Of a stretch of DNA of 7,934 nt, positions 1 to 5,284 are shown one piece after another; position 1 is the first letter of the stretch; each line of letters starts with the position of its first letter. Origin of the DNA: a virus (lineage: Duplodnaviria; Heunggongvirae; Uroviricota; Caudoviricetes); IMG/VR virus record IMGVR_UViG_2537562231_000020; one strand, written 5' to 3'. The notes under the pieces are model-generated. The model saw only the letters and a program-made list of their open reading frames with translations, did no database searches and was not told where the DNA came from. The translations under genes and the position numbers were made by a program.

Positions 1-299
1 ATCTGCAGGCCTGCCATAACATTACCGTACGCAGAGTAATATGCCCCACCGTACATTACCTGCCTGTTCTCTGCTCCCAGCCTGATATCCTGGATATATC
101 GGGAATCCGCATCCTGCTGTGTTATACCAGAAGTGATGTTTATGTCCTGCGTCCCGTCAAAGGGAACCCCATTAATATTTCTTGGGGTGGCGAGTCTATT
201 CGCGGCAACGGCGGTGCCGTCCGATGGCAGAGCATTCGCCGCCCTGTTTACCGTTTCCCGTAAACCGAGGTTTTCAGGAAAGCCAGGATTAACTCTGTT
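1..299 (-). CDS. Tail fibre protein, C-terminal variable segment (partial; no start codon; silent alternative copy inside an invertible segment)
   Basis: Minus-strand frame is open from 299 to the window edge, directly after an in-frame TAA (302..300). Translation: NRVNPGFPENLGLRETVNRAANALPSDGTAVAANRLATPRNINGVPFDGTQDINITSGITQQDADSRYIQDIRLGAENRQVMYGGAYYSAYGNVMAGLQ. It contains the phage tail-fibre repeat signature (RLATPRNINGVPFDGTQDINIT). No ATG/GTG/TTG lies in frame near its 5' end, and the frame runs through the 26-bp crossover site. Not in the ORF track because it has no start. Confidence 0.6.
255..280. other. 26-bp crossover site for a Gin/Hin/Pin-type invertase (gix/hix-like), right boundary of the invertible tail-fibre segment
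   Basis: TTCCCGTAAACC-GA-GGTTTTCAGGAA is an imperfect palindrome: two 12-bp half-sites (10/12 identical as inverted repeats) around a 2-bp core. It closely matches the gix left site as I recall it (TTCCTGTAAACCGAGGTTTTGGATAA). It lies 66 bp upstream of the invertase start and inside the tail-fibre reading frame. Confidence 0.7.
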
Positions 300-345
300 T
301 TATTCCTCATGCGACAATTCCGGCTTTTTATAATAAGGAAATCGT

Positions 346-918
346 ATGCTGATTGGGTATATCAGGGTGTCAACAAATGACCAGAATACGGCGCTACAAA
401 GAAATGCGCTGGAATGTGCAGGATGTGAGCTGTTTTTCGAAGACAGAATAAGCGGTAAGACAAGGGAGCGTCCCGGACTTAAACGCGCATTAAAGCGACT
501 CCGGCCAGGGGATACCCTGCTGGTCTGGAAACTGGATCGCCTTGGACGCAGTATGCAGCACCTTGTCCTTTTAACAGAAGAACTCCGGCAACGCGGCGTT
601 AACTTCCGCAGCATTACGGACAATATTGATACATCCACTCCCATGGGACGTTTCTTTTTCCATATAATGGGCGCGCTGGCGGAAATGGAGCGGGAACTCA
701 TTATTGAACGTACACGCGCGGGTCTTGCTGCTGCCCGTGCTCAGGGGCGTCATGGCGGCAGACCTCAGAAACTGACAGAGAAAGAGCGGGAGCAAATCGC
801 CCGTTTGCTGGCTAATGGCGAGTCCCGTAAACAAATCGCACTGATATTTGATATTGGCCTTTCCACCCTTTATCGTTATTTTCCTGCCTCACCAGCTCCG
901 TCACCAAAAGTACCGTGA
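346..918 (+). CDS. pin: Serine recombinase, DNA invertase of the Hin/Gin/Pin/Cin family
   Basis: 190-aa ORF with RBS AAGGA at 334-338. N-terminus MLIGYIRVSTNDQNTALQRNALECAGCE carries the catalytic serine motif; GDTLLVWKLDRLGRS, MGRFFFHIMGALAEMERELIIERTRAGL and a C-terminal HTH (KQIALIFDIGLSTLYRY) match the E. coli PinE sequence I recall over most of the length. Confidence 0.93.
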   Translation: MLIGYIRVSTNDQNTALQRNALECAGCELFFEDRISGKTRERPGLKRALKRLRPGDTLLVWKLDRLGRSMQHLVLLTEELRQRGVNFRSITDNIDTSTPMGRFFFHIMGALAEMERELIIERTRAGLAAARAQGRHGGRPQKLTEKEREQIARLLANGESRKQIALIFDIGLSTLYRYFPASPAPSPKVP

Positions 919-1003
919 CGCTTTTTTGAATTTCCGCAAAACACATATTTTTCAGCGGTCGCTATTCTGACTCTGTTTAATTCAGAAACAGGCAGAAAAG
1001 ACG

Positions 1004-3058
1004 ATGTCAGACTCCAAGTGGAAAATGCTCTCCGCCATGCCCGGAGAGTTTTCAGTCAAGGTTGCCGGTGGCACGGTGGCATTTATTGAAAGCCCTTTCC
1101 GCCCTTCGGGTAATAAAGGGGGGATCACCTTCGCAGACTGCGTGATCCGCTTCAGCACGAAAGAGCCATTATGGGTAATGCCGGTATCCGGTAATCCCAG
1201 TGCAGAAATCACCAGTTCAGGCGTGACTGGCATCATTCCAATCACATCTGACGTGGCCGGAACGCTCACGCCCTCCGACTGGAATGCACCGGATAACGCC
1301 GGGCCTTCCGGTAGCACGAATGGCAGCAGTTCAGAGCCGGAATATTACTTTGTTGTCATTCTCGCGGGTCAGTCAAATGGCATGGCCTACGGCGAGGGGC
1401 TGCCGTTACCGGATTCGTTTGACCGCCCGGACCCACGCATTAAGCAACTGGCACGCCGCAGTACGGTAACGCCCAACGGTACGTCGTGTACATACAACGA
1501 CATCATTCCGGCAGACCACTGCCTGCATGATGTTCAGGATATGAGCGGGATAAACCACCCGAAAGCTGATCTGGCAAAAGGCCAGTACGGGACTGTCGGT
1601 CAGGGGTTGCATATTGCCAAAAAACTGCTTCCCTATATCCCACAGAATGCCGGGATACTTCTGGTGCCCTGTTGTCGTGGCGGGTCAGCATTCACCACTG
1701 GAGCCGACGGCTCATTCAGTGAGGCCAGCGGTGCTTCCGCTGATTCTTCACGCTGGGGGGCCGGTAAACCTCTGTATCAGGACCTGGTAAGCCGCACCAA
1801 AGTCGCGCTGGCGAAAAACCCGAAAAACAAACTTCTGGCTGTGGTCTGGATGCAGGGAGAGGCAGACCTTGCCTCAGGAAGCCAGCAGCATAATAGTTTA
1901 TTCACGGCCATGGTTCAGCAGTTCAGAACTGACCTGGCTCCGCTTGCTGCGCAGTGCGTGAGTGGAAATGCCACCACGGTGCCGTGGATTTGCGGTGATA
2001 CCACGTATTACTGGAAAAACGCTGGCACCGATAAATATGAGGCAGTATACGGTGGCTACAAAGGCAAGGAAGCACAGAAAATTTTCTTTGTACCGTTCCT
2101 GACGGATGAGAATGGACAGAGCACGCCAACGAATGCTCCGGCGGAAGACCCGGATATTGTGGCTGTCGGGTATTACGGTGCAGCATCCCGAACCCAGGGC
2201 AGTTTTGTTTCGACACAGCGTGACAGCCATTTCAGCTCATGGGCACGCAGGGGCGTCATTTCAGACCGTCTGGCCTCAGCTATTATGCTCCATGCAGGGC
2301 GCACGGCTGAACTGATGCGCGGGCAGACCGTGACACCACCGGATGAGAAGCCGTCACCTGATACACCATCAAAACCGTCCACGCCACCCGCAGACACCAC
2401 GACGATGAGTACGCTATTTGCTTACCGGGCATCTGAGTCTGAAGGACGGTTGACACCACAGGGTTGGGCTGCCGGAGGTGGCAAGGCTCAAATCGTGGAT
2501 GATGCCGGAGCCAGCGGGGGTAAGGCAATGAAACTGACCAAGGAAACAGGAAGAGCCCCCTGGTACCTTGAGCATGATGCTGGTAATGGTGCGGACCTGC
2601 TGGGTAAAGGTGGTCTTGTCAGTTGTCGTTTTAAACTCGATGGCGCGCTTACGGCTAATCAGTACGCACTGGCGCTGTACTGGCCGGTTTCTGCCCTGCC
2701 GCAAGGGGTTACTCTGGAAGGAAATGCCGGTCATAACCTGCTGGCATCGTTCTACGTACAGAGCGATGCCACAGACCTTAACGTGATGTATCACAAAGGA
2801 AACACGGCGCAGAACACGAAGCTGGGGTCATTCGGCGCATTTAATAACGAATGGCATACGCTGGGCTTCCGTTTTGCCGGTAACAACAGTATTGAGGTGA
2901 CGCCGGTCATTGATGGTAAGGACGGGACACCATTCATGCTGTCGCAGTCTCCGGTCGGCACGTTTACGGCAGACAAGTTGCGCGTGACCGATATCACTAA
3001 AAATGCGACTTACCCGGTACTGATTGACAGTATCGTGGTGGAAGTGAATAACGCGTAA
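1004..3058 (+). CDS. SASA/SGNH-type carbohydrate O-acetylesterase (prophage NanS-p-like 9-O-acetyl-sialate esterase) with Pro/Thr linker and C-terminal lectin-like domain
   Basis: 684-aa ORF. Catalytic block VVILAGQSNGMAYGEG (GQSN motif) and downstream VVWMQGEADL (QGE-x-D block) are the signatures of the sialate O-acetylesterase (SASA/DUF303) family. A Pro/Thr-rich linker (PPDEKPSPDTPSKPSTPPADTTT, about nt 2336-2410) precedes a roughly 200-aa beta-rich C-terminal domain that looks lectin or ConA-like. Size and layout resemble the prophage NanS-p esterases of enterohaemorrhagic E. coli. Confidence 0.75.
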   Translation: MSDSKWKMLSAMPGEFSVKVAGGTVAFIESPFRPSGNKGGITFADCVIRFSTKEPLWVMPVSGNPSAEITSSGVTGIIPITSDVAGTLTPSDWNAPDNAGPSGSTNGSSSEPEYYFVVILAGQSNGMAYGEGLPLPDSFDRPDPRIKQLARRSTVTPNGTSCTYNDIIPADHCLHDVQDMSGINHPKADLAKGQYGTVGQGLHIAKKLLPYIPQNAGILLVPCCRGGSAFTTGADGSFSEASGASADSSRWGAGKPLYQDLVSRTKVALAKNPKNKLLAVVWMQGEADLASGSQQHNSLFTAMVQQFRTDLAPLAAQCVSGNATTVPWICGDTTYYWKNAGTDKYEAVYGGYKGKEAQKIFFVPFLTDENGQSTPTNAPAEDPDIVAVGYYGAASRTQGSFVSTQRDSHFSSWARRGVISDRLASAIMLHAGRTAELMRGQTVTPPDEKPSPDTPSKPSTPPADTTTMSTLFAYRASESEGRLTPQGWAAGGGKAQIVDDAGASGGKAMKLTKETGRAPWYLEHDAGNGADLLGKGGLVSCRFKLDGALTANQYALALYWPVSALPQGVTLEGNAGHNLLASFYVQSDATDLNVMYHKGNTAQNTKLGSFGAFNNEWHTLGFRFAGNNSIEVTPVIDGKDGTPFMLSQSPVGTFTADKLRVTDITKNATYPVLIDSIVVEVNNA

Positions 3059-3073
3059 GCAGGATAAAAAAAT

Positions 3074-3106
3074 GCCGCCGGTAAGGGAAAACAAGAAACC
3101 GGCGGC
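3074..3106. terminator. Stem-loop just downstream of the esterase gene; likely a transcript terminator, orientation ambiguous
   Basis: Perfect 9-bp stem GCCGCCGGT (3074-3082) / ACCGGCGGC (3098-3106) with a 15-nt loop. It is flanked by an A7 run upstream (3066-3072) and AAAAAG downstream, so the U-tract is on the minus-strand side. Confidence 0.35.
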
Positions 3107-3202
3107 AAAAAGATCGTTATATCCAAAGCAAAAAATGCAGTGCACCTTTTTACCTAACAGATATTACCGGTGTCAACACCATGTCAATAATTGGGAGGGA
3201 TA

Positions 3203-3385
3203 ATGACATTTTTACAGCTTATTTTATTGTATTTCTGCACGGCAGTATGTGCGTTATATCTGGTGAGTGGTGGTTATAAGGCCATCAGAAATTATGTTCG
3301 CCGCAAAATTGAGGACGCAGCAGCTGAAAAACTCAGTAAAACAGCGCAGGTAACTCCGCTCCCAAAAGACCCGACCCAGCCCTGA
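3203..3385 (+). CDS. Hypothetical small membrane protein (single N-terminal transmembrane helix)
   Basis: ATG at 3203 preceded by GGGAGGG (3193-3199). The ORF track starts it at TTG 3191; I prefer the ATG. Product MTFLQLILLYFCTAVCALYLVSGGYKAIRNYVRRKIEDAAAEKLSKTAQVTPLPKDPTQP has a hydrophobic N-terminus and a charged tail. I recognise no family. Confidence 0.45.
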   Translation: MTFLQLILLYFCTAVCALYLVSGGYKAIRNYVRRKIEDAAAEKLSKTAQVTPLPKDPTQP

Positions 3386-3420
3386 TTGCAGGGCTTTATT
3401 CCCGCATAAGGAGGATATAC

Positions 3421-3675
3421 ATGCCAGAAATTAAAGGCACCGTCACTGAAGACCTGGTAAAACAGGCACTGTATTCCGGTGAAGTAAATAAGTTGCTGAA
3501 AGCGCAGGTCCGCAAGGATTTTGAGGCACAAATCGACACTTACGTTGATGAAGTGCTGGCAAAACTTATTGGGCCAGCAGTTGCGGCCAGTGATGCTGAT
3601 AATGAGCCGAAAACCGACGCGCAGCCAGAGCAACCAGACCCGGCTCAGCCCGGAACTGACAGTACCATGATGTAA
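3421..3675 (+). CDS. Hypothetical small acidic protein
   Basis: 84-aa ORF with a strong RBS (AAGGAGG about 8 nt upstream of the ATG). Helical-looking N-terminal half and an acidic, Pro/Gln-rich, probably disordered C-terminal tail. I recognise no family. Confidence 0.5.
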   Translation: MPEIKGTVTEDLVKQALYSGEVNKLLKAQVRKDFEAQIDTYVDEVLAKLIGPAVAASDADNEPKTDAQPEQPDPAQPGTDSTMM

Positions 3676-3680
3676 CAATA

Positions 3681-3708
3681 CAAACCGGTGGTGTCCTCTG
3701 CCGGTTTG
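3681..3708. terminator. Hairpin between convergent genes (possible bidirectional terminator)
   Basis: Perfect 8-bp stem CAAACCGG (3681-3688) / CCGGTTTG (3701-3708) with a 12-nt loop, 6 nt after the stop of the 84-aa ORF and upstream of the convergent minus-strand gene end at 3843. U-tract is weak. Confidence 0.3.
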
Positions 3709-3842
3709 ACACTAATGAAAACATCTTTGCCGCTATCCAGCCATATGTAATCGCTGGATAGTATTTCGTATTCAGAAATATAGCTGCTTATGGAGCAGTC
3801 AATCCTGCTTCCCCATCCGGGCAGGCAAATGAACCGGTATCA

Positions 3843-4136
3843 TTAGTCCGATTCACGCTTTTGTAGAATCGTTCCCAGAATGCTATACAGCTCATTAGCC
3901 TGTTGCTCCATCATTGAGACGGAGGCTATACGGTGCAAAGTGATTTCAGGAGGTGGCACACCTCCATCTTCTTGCTGTGGAGGAAAAACATAAGATTTAA
4001 TAAAAAAGTTGAAGCATATGAACTCTCCCGCACTCGAACTGTATTTGCAGGCATCTGAATAATCGGAAAAATAATCATTATAGATTTCCGCATTTTCAAT
4101 CATTTTTCGATTTCTCGTCGTTACATGATTGTCCAT
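3843..4136 (-). CDS. Hypothetical protein, low-GC moron-like gene
   Basis: 97-aa minus-strand ORF with RBS AAGAGG 7-8 nt upstream of the ATG (complement of 4137-4150). Markedly AT-rich relative to flanking phage genes. Divergent from com/mom with its own AT-rich upstream region. I recognise no family. Confidence 0.5.
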   Translation of the reverse strand: MDNHVTTRNRKMIENAEIYNDYFSDYSDACKYSSSAGEFICFNFFIKSYVFPPQQEDGGVPPPEITLHRIASVSMMEQQANELYSILGTILQKRESD

Positions 4137-4392
4137 AGCAGCCTCTTACGCTGGCAATTAACCAATTGACTTCTATAAATTAGTTGATTTGTTTGCTTTG
4201 CGGTATTCAAATGTACAATCATTCAGCACTTATGCGTTACAGCACCGTTTAAAATTAGTGATCAAACTCATAAATTTTCGCTAATGACATTTCGTGTTAT
4301 TTGTTGTATCAATTAAATAAATCAAATCGATCGTTTTTGTCGATCGATTGAGTGATAAAGATATCAACAACAAAGCAGGAGGTTATGCGGCC
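4137..4392. promoter_or_regulatory. AT-rich divergent intergenic control region with a GATC triad and an ATCGATCG/CGATCGAT palindrome upstream of com
   Basis: 256-bp AT-rich spacer between divergent genes. Sigma70-like hexamers are present (for example TTTGCT 4192-4197 with TACAAT 4214-4219; ATGACA 4284-4289 with TATCAA 4307-4312). Three GATC sites at 4260, 4329 and 4342; the last two sit in the inverted repeat ATCGATCG (4326-4333) ... CGATCGAT (4341-4348). Exact promoter positions are not determinable by eye. Confidence 0.4.
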
Positions 4393-4593
4393 ATGTATCG
4401 AAACATACGGTGCCGACATTGTAACAAGCTACTGGCACGAGCCAGCTTCAGTTATCTGGAAGTTAAATGTCCGCGCTGTAAAACCCTCAATCAAATCACA
4501 TCTCAGAGCGCCACAGAGCACCCCACATACACAAGGAAATCCTGTCGTGGGGAACAGAAAGCAAGTTACATCCCGTATCATCAGCACGCCTGA
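4393..4593 (+). CDS. com: Com-like zinc-finger translational activator
   Basis: ATG at 4393 with RBS AGGAGG (4377-4382). Product [32 protein letters not shown]... has the paired C-x2-C zinc-finger layout and near-identical spacing to phage Mu Com as I recall it (IRCKNCNKLL...IEVRCPRCK). The ORF-track start at TTG 4348 is an upstream extension I consider unlikely. Confidence 0.85.
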
Positions 4594-5284
4594 ACTTATT
4601 CACTATAACGACAATATCGTCGGTTATGGCTCCCGTGAGTTACGGGTTGAGACAATAAGTTGCTGGCTGGCCCGGCTGGTCGTCGTCAATAAACATTACA
4701 GCCATCGTTTCGTAAATAATTCCTACCTTCATCTGGGCATATTTTCAGAACGGGAGCTGGTTGGCGTAATGCAATGGGGTTATGCCCTTAATCCAAACAA
4801 TGGTGCACGCGTCGTAACTGGCACGCAGAACCGCGAATATATGGAGCTTAACCGGTTATGGCTGCATGACTGTATGCCGAGAAACTCCGAATCAAGGGCA
4901 ATCAGTTACGCGCTCAAACTAATCAGACAACTTTATCCGCAGGTGCAGTGGGTTCAGTCGTTTGCAGATGAGCGTTGTGGCTGTCTTGGTGTCGTGTACC
5001 AGGCAAGCAATTTTGATTATGTAGGCAGTCATGAAACAACATTCTATGAACTTGATGGCGAGTGGTATCACGAGATTTGCAAGAATGCAATCAAACGAGG
5101 AGGACAGCGAGGTGAACATCTGCGGGCTAATATCGACAGAGCCAGTGTTCATAAATTCCGTCAGTTTCGTTACATCCGGTTTCTGGACAAGAGAGCCAGA
5201 AAACGCCTTAACACAAAGCTATTCAAAGTCCAGCCTTACCCAAAACCACAAACAGTTAAAACTGGTTTGAAAGAGAGTGAATGA
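4547..5284 (+). CDS. mom: Mom-like DNA modification protein (acyltransferase-type adenine modification; anti-restriction)
   Basis: Long ORF in a different frame overlapping the 3' end of com, as in the Mu com-mom operon, and sitting downstream of a Gin-family invertase as in Mu. 3' end is firm (stop 5282-5284). The start is uncertain: I placed it at GTG 4547, which is in frame with AAGGA 9 nt upstream, giving 245 aa; the first in-frame ATG is much further downstream. Assignment is mainly by gene context; I could not verify the Mom sequence from memory. Confidence 0.6.

Follow-up and report, generated by a model that had tools for sequence, protein, structure and literature searches.

The NanS-p proteins of lambdoid and Shiga toxin (Stx) prophages, such as L0105/z1466 of 933W and vb_24B_21 (= gp84) of phi24B, combine a NanS-like catalytic core with a Pro/Thr-type linker, a C-terminal DUF6645 domain and an N-terminal DUF1737, a domain of ~50 amino acids (aa) with a helix and three strands. 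The statements of PMC8065619 that cite Saile 2016/2018 and Feuerbaum 2018 present them as active esterases of 5-N-acetyl-9-O-acetylneuraminic acid (Neu5,9Ac2), which de-O-acetylate mucin glycans and provide a growth advantage. Their chromosomal relative NanS (YjhS; PDB 3pt5) is a single-domain protein of ~326 aa belonging to the NanR sialoregulon; it is not phage-borne and is devoid of an N-terminal module, a Pro/Thr linker and a lectin domain. For phi24B, gp84 has been described as an abundant virion protein, whose DUF1737 domain forms a hexamer on the central capsid hexons and whose enzymatic part is later cut off at the linkers (bioRxiv 10.64898/2026.04.10.717836). Here we describe an esterase gene at positions 1004-3058 of the IMG/VR virus record IMGVR_UViG_2537562231_000020 (Caudoviricetes), of which we analysed a single stretch of 7,934 nucleotides, termed the window below. 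We consider it probable that this gene codes for a NanS-p-type esterase, which is carried as cargo by a Mu-like phage and has a different N-terminal module (hereafter N-module) in place of DUF1737. The gene, with its complete open reading frame (ORF), is organized as follows:

1004..3058, plus strand: complete esterase ORF with an ATG start, 684 aa and a stop codon
1004..1294, plus strand: N-module, aa 1-97, with a predicted folded all-beta part at aa ~5-80; replaces DUF1737
1295..1336, plus strand: Gly/Ser/Asn/Pro-rich linker 1, aa 98-111; holds the recombination boundary with lambdoid nanS-p
1337..2302, plus strand: NanS-like SASA / SGNH type II catalytic domain, aa 112-433 (3pt5, Pfam SASA)
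1370..1375, plus strand: codons of Q123 (oxyanion hole) and S124 (nucleophile) in the GQSN block, aligned with NanS Gln18 and Ser19
2228..2230, plus strand: codon of H409 (catalytic base) in the motif RDSH, aligned with NanS His301
2303..2413, plus strand: Pro/Thr-rich linker 2, aa 434-470, with 8 Pro and 9 Thr in 37 residues
2414..3055, plus strand: C-terminal lectin-like jelly-roll domain, aa 471-684, DUF6645 (6yp6, PF20350)

A first-pass annotation, made from the nucleotide sequence without database searches, had read the gene as a large three-part member of the sialate/carbohydrate O-acetylesterase family, with a Pro/Thr linker and a lectin-like C-terminal domain, and profile and structure-based comparisons support each of these assignments. 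The Pfam SASA model (PF03629) matches aa 117-312 (E=1.5e-13; 51.3 bits against a gathering cut-off of 24.8), and E. coli NanS/YjhS (PDB 3pt5) aligns with aa 110-428 (E=1.8e-117; 58% identity over 315 residues). In the C-terminal region, DUF6645 (PF20350) is recovered at aa 533-650 (E=7.4e-68), and the crystal structure obtained for the C-terminal domain of a phage NanS-p (PDB 6yp6) aligns with aa 469-683 (E=7.1e-98). The protein as a whole matches phrog_143 over aa 71-684 (E=1.7e-296), with linker 2 being the least conserved segment across homologs (65-100%). To judge by these matches, which lie well outside what chance would give, the gene is a NanS-p-type sialate O-acetylesterase of an already known family; public annotations accordingly name its product either 'DUF6645 domain-containing protein' or 'sialate O-acetylesterase'. 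The exact 684-aa protein is recorded in 4464 blocks of public assemblies, including that of Shigella sonnei 53G, which makes the gene very common in sequenced S. sonnei and E. coli. Hydropathy analysis, in response to the earlier suggestion of a signal-peptide check, revealed no signal-peptide-like segment: the N-terminus has a basic start with no hydrophobic core behind it, and the top 11-residue value in the first 70 aa is 1.65. The enzyme would therefore leave the cell either by phage-induced lysis or on virions.

The two sequence blocks singled out in the first-pass annotation are both present, as GQSN at aa 122-125 and QGEAD (QGE-x-D) at aa 284-288; however, the second does not qualify as a catalytic block, the residues that matter being Q123, S124 and H409, all of which are conserved. 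In the alignment with the 3pt5 chain, S124 and H409 fall on Ser30 and His312, and since both of these are offset by the same 11 positions from the published numbering, they correspond to Ser19 and His301 of NanS. None of the three residues varies when the protein is aligned with the Stx2a-phage NanS-p and a second Mu-like copy. There is no classical DxxH block: Arg406 lies three residues ahead of H409, and NanS likewise displays an Arg at this position (R-S-S-H). As NanS is portrayed in PMC9063846, where Rangarajan 2011 is cited, it uses a Ser19-His301 dyad with a Gln18/Gly oxyanion hole and has no catalytic Asp; the Ser/His/Asp triad anticipated earlier is thus not what is found, and its loss is the wrong yardstick for the NanS subfamily. 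Hence, the missing Asp at the DxxH position would be no argument against activity of the esterase, which resembles chromosomal NanS in belonging to the SGNH type II fold family, in keeping the Ser, Gln and His, and in having no Asp at -3. The four aromatic residues Y554, Y559, Y584 and F654, which figure in the list of proposed sugar-binding residues of the NanS-p lectin-like domain (PMC10462455), are likewise all kept. A separate peculiarity is seen in the last catalytic block (window 2219-2230, aa 406-409), which reads RDSH with an Asp at position -2, unlike the published NanS-p block IV, for which a survey lists RSSH or RASH and a single RPTH outlier (PMC10462455).

The window protein departs from the canonical architecture at its N-terminus. 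In the Stx2a-phage locus that we used for comparison (L002: stx2AB, a 645-aa yjhS/nanS-p, DUF1378, DUF826, holin, endolysin), NanS-p displays DUF1737 (PF08410) at aa 3-50 (E=1e-15), followed by the SASA and DUF6645 domains. The window protein aligns with it from 'PEYYF..AGQSN' to the end, with 71% identity in the core and 69% in the C-terminal domain, whereas the N-termini are unrelated; PF08410 has no match in the window protein at E<=0.1, nor in the N-module alone at E<=5. Three 647-aa DUF1737-type proteins (P0031, P0032, P0040) are 89-91% identical from aa 98-109 onward (BLASTP), such that identity in the core extends from 71% for the Stx2a-phage copy up to 89-91% for some non-Stx lambdoid copies. 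The gene for P0032 lies in a non-Stx lambdoid late region (L043: Q, N6-methylase, nanS-p, DUF1378, DUF826, holin, lysozyme, Rz1), whose DNA is 88% identical to window 1336-3337. This homology starts within linker 1, at its junction with the catalytic domain, and stops within DUF1378. Read from these alignments, the arrangement is a clean module swap, in which a common esterase-lectin body is combined with one of two alternative N-terminal modules, viz., DUF1737 or an unrelated all-beta module of ~80 aa. The window protein thus shares with the lambdoid NanS-p proteins a prophage-borne gene, a NanS-like core extended by extra domains at its N- and C-termini, and the succeeding DUF1378 and DUF826 genes. 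Unlike them, it is carried by a transposable Mu-like prophage of the myovirus type and is encoded between gin and com/mom, whereas the canonical genes lie between stx/Q and the lysis genes. It thus lacks both the DUF1737 N-terminus and the lambdoid late-region location that characterize canonical NanS-p. We found no published description of a Mu-like-borne NanS-p or of the N-module, with Saile 2016 and Rangel 2016 as possible exceptions.

The ~110-aa N-terminal region had been recorded in the first-pass annotation as having no known function. It indeed shows no Pfam match at E<=0.1 with the whole protein or at E<=5 on its own, and no PDB sequence match was obtained with the N-module; however, it is no random extension but a conserved module in its own right, which takes the place of DUF1737. 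Among close alleles (synonymous rate dS 0.18-0.38), the ratio of nonsynonymous to synonymous rates (dN/dS) is 0.03-0.04 in the N-module and 0.09-0.13 in the catalytic core: the module is under strong purifying selection and is at least as constrained as the core. When ORFs cut by a contig end are left out, 41 of 44 N-module ORFs are full length and three are truncated. Within the clade of the window protein, the N-module is 97-100% identical, with corresponding values of 81-100% for the core and 81-98% for the C-terminal domain; it appears that the esterase-lectin body recombines and the N-module stays with the Mu-like backbone.

The phyletic distribution of the N-module is consistent with such a linkage. 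Wherever there is enough flanking DNA (34 IMG/VR contigs, the E. coli loci and the eight places with the exact protein), the genes bearing it occur in a Mu-like context, including variants with gin deleted, and all 46 collected loci are either Mu-like or show no other context. In the checkable loci, it resides exclusively in E. coli, Shigella and Salmonella prophages of the Mu-like type. N-module DNA is found in 28 of 5,426 complete E. coli genomes, 1,291 of which have matches to the esterase body. A tblastn search with the N-module against phage genomes recovered only two Stx phages, each with an inserted Mu-like phage. More divergent versions include that of a 680-aa homolog from a second Mu-like phage (L003, clade B), with an N-module 59% identical to that of the window, and those of two Salmonella enterica proteins (P0006, P0132) at 31-35% identity; the P0006 gene is placed after gin in a Mu-like prophage and its product has a Pro/Thr linker leading to the core. 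In a HMMER search against 1.84 billion representatives, P0006 was the one distant match and the others were fragments of the same protein. Word-indexed searches likewise yielded fragments only, and a scan of genome contigs gave no match with search patterns that were probably restrictive. The rarity of the N-module is in part an artefact because cluster representatives bearing DUF1737 hide its variants. Neither the Mu-like and lambdoid genomes examined nor the small ORFs at the Salmonella locus yielded a paralog. Additionally, a third group of Mu-like esterases from IMG/VR (L035, L036, L037, L038; 685-693 aa) couples the clade-B N-module to a lectin domain only 42-49% identical to that of the window protein, a divergence that suggests a different glycan specificity.

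The neighborhood of the gene comprises the following features:

346..918, plus strand: gin-type serine DNA invertase, marking the border of the Mu-like G segment (Resolvase and HTH_7; phrog_125, E=1.9e-94)
3203..3385, plus strand: DUF1378, a small membrane protein of ~60 aa with one hydrophobic helix (PF07125, E=1.2e-31; annotation of locus L001)
3421..3675, plus strand: DUF826, third gene of the cassette (PF05696, E=6.4e-16), syntenic in Mu-like and lambdoid phages
4393..5284, plus strand: com (4393..4593) and mom (4547..5284), DNA modification (PF25680 Mom, E=1.6e-77; annotation of locus L001)
5312..5412, plus strand: right terminus of the Mu-like prophage (93% identity to the Mu-like end in LC727895.1)

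Window positions 1-5412 recur at 99.9-100% identity in complete E. coli genomes, where the gene order is an inverted tail-fibre fragment with a tail-fibre assembly gene, the recombinase, the esterase, DUF1378, DUF826, a hypothetical gene, com and mom; the order gin-esterase-DUF1378-DUF826-com-mom is kept in E. coli genomes and 34 IMG/VR contigs. The identity to other E. coli genomes ends at position 5412. The segment 5312-5412 matches the final 101 bases of an element that the record of the Stx1a phage LC727895.1 labels 'inserted Bacteriophage Mu-like phage', where an annotated target-site duplication comes next; because of this match we place the prophage's right end at 5412. Starting with 5413, the sequence corresponds at 97% identity to tape-measure and minor-tail genes of Stx-type lambdoid phages: in the genome from which the window derives, a Mu-like phage has transposed into the tape-measure gene of a lambdoid prophage. 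A 555-aa ORF (5277..6944) spans 5412/5413 as a chimera of the Mu-like end and the C-terminal two-thirds of a lambdoid tape-measure protein; this junction occurs in no complete E. coli genome of the collection, and a look-up of the chimeric protein returned no record. An intact counterpart is furnished by E. coli FORC_069 (L041), with a 39-kb Mu-like prophage that carries the cassette, is inserted in a fimbrial usher gene and codes for a repressor, ner, transposase A, B, gam, mor, lysis, head, sheath and tube proteins, baseplate gp45-48, and the S/U tail fibres. The identical esterase is found at eight places with eight distinct right-hand flanks, and in one genome (AST198) the N-terminal segment is present in three copies, which fits transposition. 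The host element is a transposable Mu-like prophage and not a lambdoid one.

In Mu itself, com comes directly after gin. Since this is so, and since the gin-mom region of SfMu is just 1.5 kb in length (PMC4406740), the esterase, DUF1378 and DUF826 genes constitute an insertion. The first-pass view of the esterase as cargo between the invertase and com/mom thus agrees with the Pfam and PHROG matches and the L001 annotation, and its placement outside the tail-fibre gene also holds, the esterase being a separate ORF after gin with no tail-fibre domain match. As the DUF1378-DUF826 pair follows the esterase in lambdoid and Mu-like phages alike, the trio behaves as a single mobile cassette, suggesting a functional link between its members.

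Several further observations concern the surroundings of the cassette. The window opens inside an inverted fragment of a tail-fibre gene, in its 3' part (1-281, minus strand), and TTCCCGTAAACCGAGGTTTTCAGGAA at 254-279, just 5' of the invertase gene, is a putative crossover site resembling gix/hix of the Gin/Hin-type invertases. The gene after com is exchangeable, with mom in the window and most other copies, and a 350-aa DNA cytosine-C5 methyltransferase elsewhere (L003:12221-13472; L040:23133-24339); in these variants com is nearly identical and the prophage is otherwise similar. DUF826 and com are separated by a variable spacer (3700-4390) with a low GC content of 35-41%, which contains a 97-aa ORF (3843..4136, minus strand) with no family match; in other copies of the prophage, the spacer holds a 66-aa plus-strand ORF, which in some is accompanied by a shortened remnant of the minus-strand gene. 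No weight attaches to a weak -35/-10 match at 848-876 or to a hairpin resembling a terminator at 3949-3965. In E. coli AST198 (L040; NZ_AP043606.1 455540-465105), a 'mini-Mu' remnant of ~10 kb has the cassette with an intact esterase in the order repressor, ner, transposase A, part of B (abutting the next item without a gap), tail-fibre-assembly fragment, gin, cassette, com and methyltransferase. In FORC_069, the RefSeq annotation includes a minus-strand 'tRNA-OTHER' (L041:22013-22092), situated between the genes for head morphogenesis and virion morphogenesis.

With an alignment of seven sequences, AlphaFold2 predicts the N-module as a six-stranded all-beta domain at aa ~5-80 (predicted local distance difference test score, pLDDT, ~80-88), with a disordered linker at aa 83-108 (pLDDT <50); an earlier run with two sequences was poor (pLDDT 55). 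The model is a small jelly-roll or cupin-like barrel, and PA14 carbohydrate-binding domains are just among its weak Foldseek hits. Barrels of this kind are common among carbohydrate-binding modules. The N-module contains no His, and it is therefore not a metal-binding cupin enzyme; the predicted fold as such gives no functional assignment. Potential stand-alone relatives are found in phrog_4772, a family of phage proteins of ~79 aa, to which the Salmonella (E=9.7e-6) and clade-B (E=0.005) N-modules align over nearly the full profile; five of seven N-module homologs match it at E<=1. Since it is only the homologs of the window's module that show this match, the link to phrog_4772 is a transitive one. 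The length of these proteins fits the folded part of the N-module, and as stand-alone proteins they provide a parallel to DUF1737, which is mostly single-domain.

Extrapolating from its relatives, we propose that the esterase would act on sialic acids, both free and mucin-bound, by taking off 9-O-acetyl and other O-acetyl groups, and that these sialic acids might then become a usable carbon source for E. coli or Shigella, with the lectin domain holding the enzyme on glycans. For the N-module, we tentatively advance, as a possibility argued by analogy, the role of a lineage-specific anchor, i.e., the Mu-like counterpart of the DUF1737 capsid anchor, which would attach the esterase to a virion partner particular to this lineage. 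The enzyme body would then be common to different phage types and the anchor fitted to the particle. Such an anchor model would predict what is seen here, namely a module that lies at the position of DUF1737, is joined by a flexible linker, was found only in another phage lineage and has distant stand-alone relatives.

Several lines of evidence weigh against this proposal. The window's own N-module has no match to phrog_4772 at E<=5, and no known decoration protein matches its model structurally. The N-modules of the two clades are 59% identical, yet their major capsid proteins are 94% identical; moreover, the N-module lies within one contiguous divergent block, which extends from the tail-fibre gene S through DUF826. 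Given that the module shares this block with the tail-fibre genes and gin, the comparison of module and capsid co-variation does not discriminate between the explanations. The ORF is intact in heavily deleted remnants without capsid genes, as would fit a virion-free benefit to the host. Scans for promoters and terminators returned counts at chance level. The relatives from which the substrate specificity is extrapolated share 58-71% identity with the window protein in the core, and the phi24B result comes from an unreviewed preprint on a podovirus (bioRxiv 10.64898/2026.04.10.717836).

The best-surviving alternative, which we regard as a genuine though still tentative contender, is that the esterase is purely a lysogen-fitness (moron) enzyme that is never part of the particle, with the N-module serving as a glycan-binding, oligomerisation or solubility domain. 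Lysis of a subpopulation would release the enzyme, and the surviving lysogens would be fed with de-acetylated sialic acid. NanS-p is reported to permit growth on Neu5,9Ac2 and to act on mucin (PMC8065619), in line with this explanation, as are the barrel predicted for the N-module, the weak PA14 hits, the divergence of the module without co-variation with the capsid protein, and the intact ORFs of the mini-Mu and rearranged remnants without head genes, although such head-less remnants may simply be recent. What it leaves unexplained is the strict linkage of module and phage type despite the free exchange of the body with lambdoid copies, as well as the exact placement of the module at the position of the reported capsid-binding domain (bioRxiv 10.64898/2026.04.10.717836).

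An improbable alternative is that the enzyme modifies or destroys receptors by de-O-acetylating the bacterial O-antigen, capsule or polysialic acid, thereby aiding adsorption or blocking re-adsorption and superinfection. This idea has been raised in the literature for NanS-p (PMC8065619), and the location of the gene directly after the tail-fibre/invertase host-range module is compatible with it. Further, a 'tail protein' profile of 598 positions, phrog_25867, matches aa 211-312 (window 1634-1939; E=1.2e-6) in the esterase core, from which it appears that some phage tail proteins contain a SASA-like segment and that SASA-like domains occur in virion proteins. However, this is the sole 'tail' match, and no tail-fibre or tailspike attachment domain was found in the esterase with Pfam and PHROG, in keeping with a separate ORF that is devoid of the N-terminal domain of such proteins. 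Moreover, the catalytic domain shares 58% identity with NanS and ~70% with NanS-p proteins whose action on sialic acids has been demonstrated, and the same body is present in lambdoid phages with quite different tails. Finally, it is extremely unlikely that the gene is a decaying passenger, i.e., an illegitimate-recombination chimera of a lambdoid nanS-p fragment with 110 aa of N-terminal junk: despite the degraded or rearranged state of the element in the window and several genomes and the few truncated ORFs, we reject such a pseudogene reading given an N-module dN/dS that is the same as or below that of the core, the predominance of full-length ORFs, the architecture shared by the E. coli and Salmonella homologs at 59% and 31-35% identity, the intact catalytic and sugar-binding residues, and the carriage of the gene by intact 39-kb phages.

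As an enzyme, the esterase is ordinary; the Mu-like context and the N-terminal swap are what this analysis adds to the first reading of the DNA. Why enteric E. coli prophages hold so many NanS-p copies, and whether the benefit accrues to the lysogen or the particle, is debated, and the gene described here represents a natural domain-swap experiment, in which the same body is joined to another N-module that is found in Mu-like prophages only. The anchor model invites a broader generalization, which we regard as somewhat unlikely, that NanS-p-type esterases are modular virion-displayed enzymes whose body passes between unrelated temperate phages and receives an anchor specific to the lineage, with DUF1737 serving for lambdoid capsids and a phrog_4772-like beta-barrel for Mu-like particles. 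If this were true, a receptor-destroying enzyme targeted to mucus would be carried by the Mu-like virions of E. coli, Shigella and Salmonella, and the system would be more than a metabolic gift to the lysogen: a phage counterpart of the haemagglutinin-esterases of influenza C (HEF) and coronaviruses (HE). Like these proteins, a displayed esterase would combine a virion sialate O-acetylesterase of the SGNH fold with a lectin (cf. PMC9063846), though they belong to eukaryotic enveloped viruses and have another domain order; the likeness is purely one of analogy. Should the N-module anchor the enzyme to Mu-like virions, it would support a general principle of displayed mucus-active enzymes with exchangeable anchors; should it not, this would argue for another role of the N-terminal domains.

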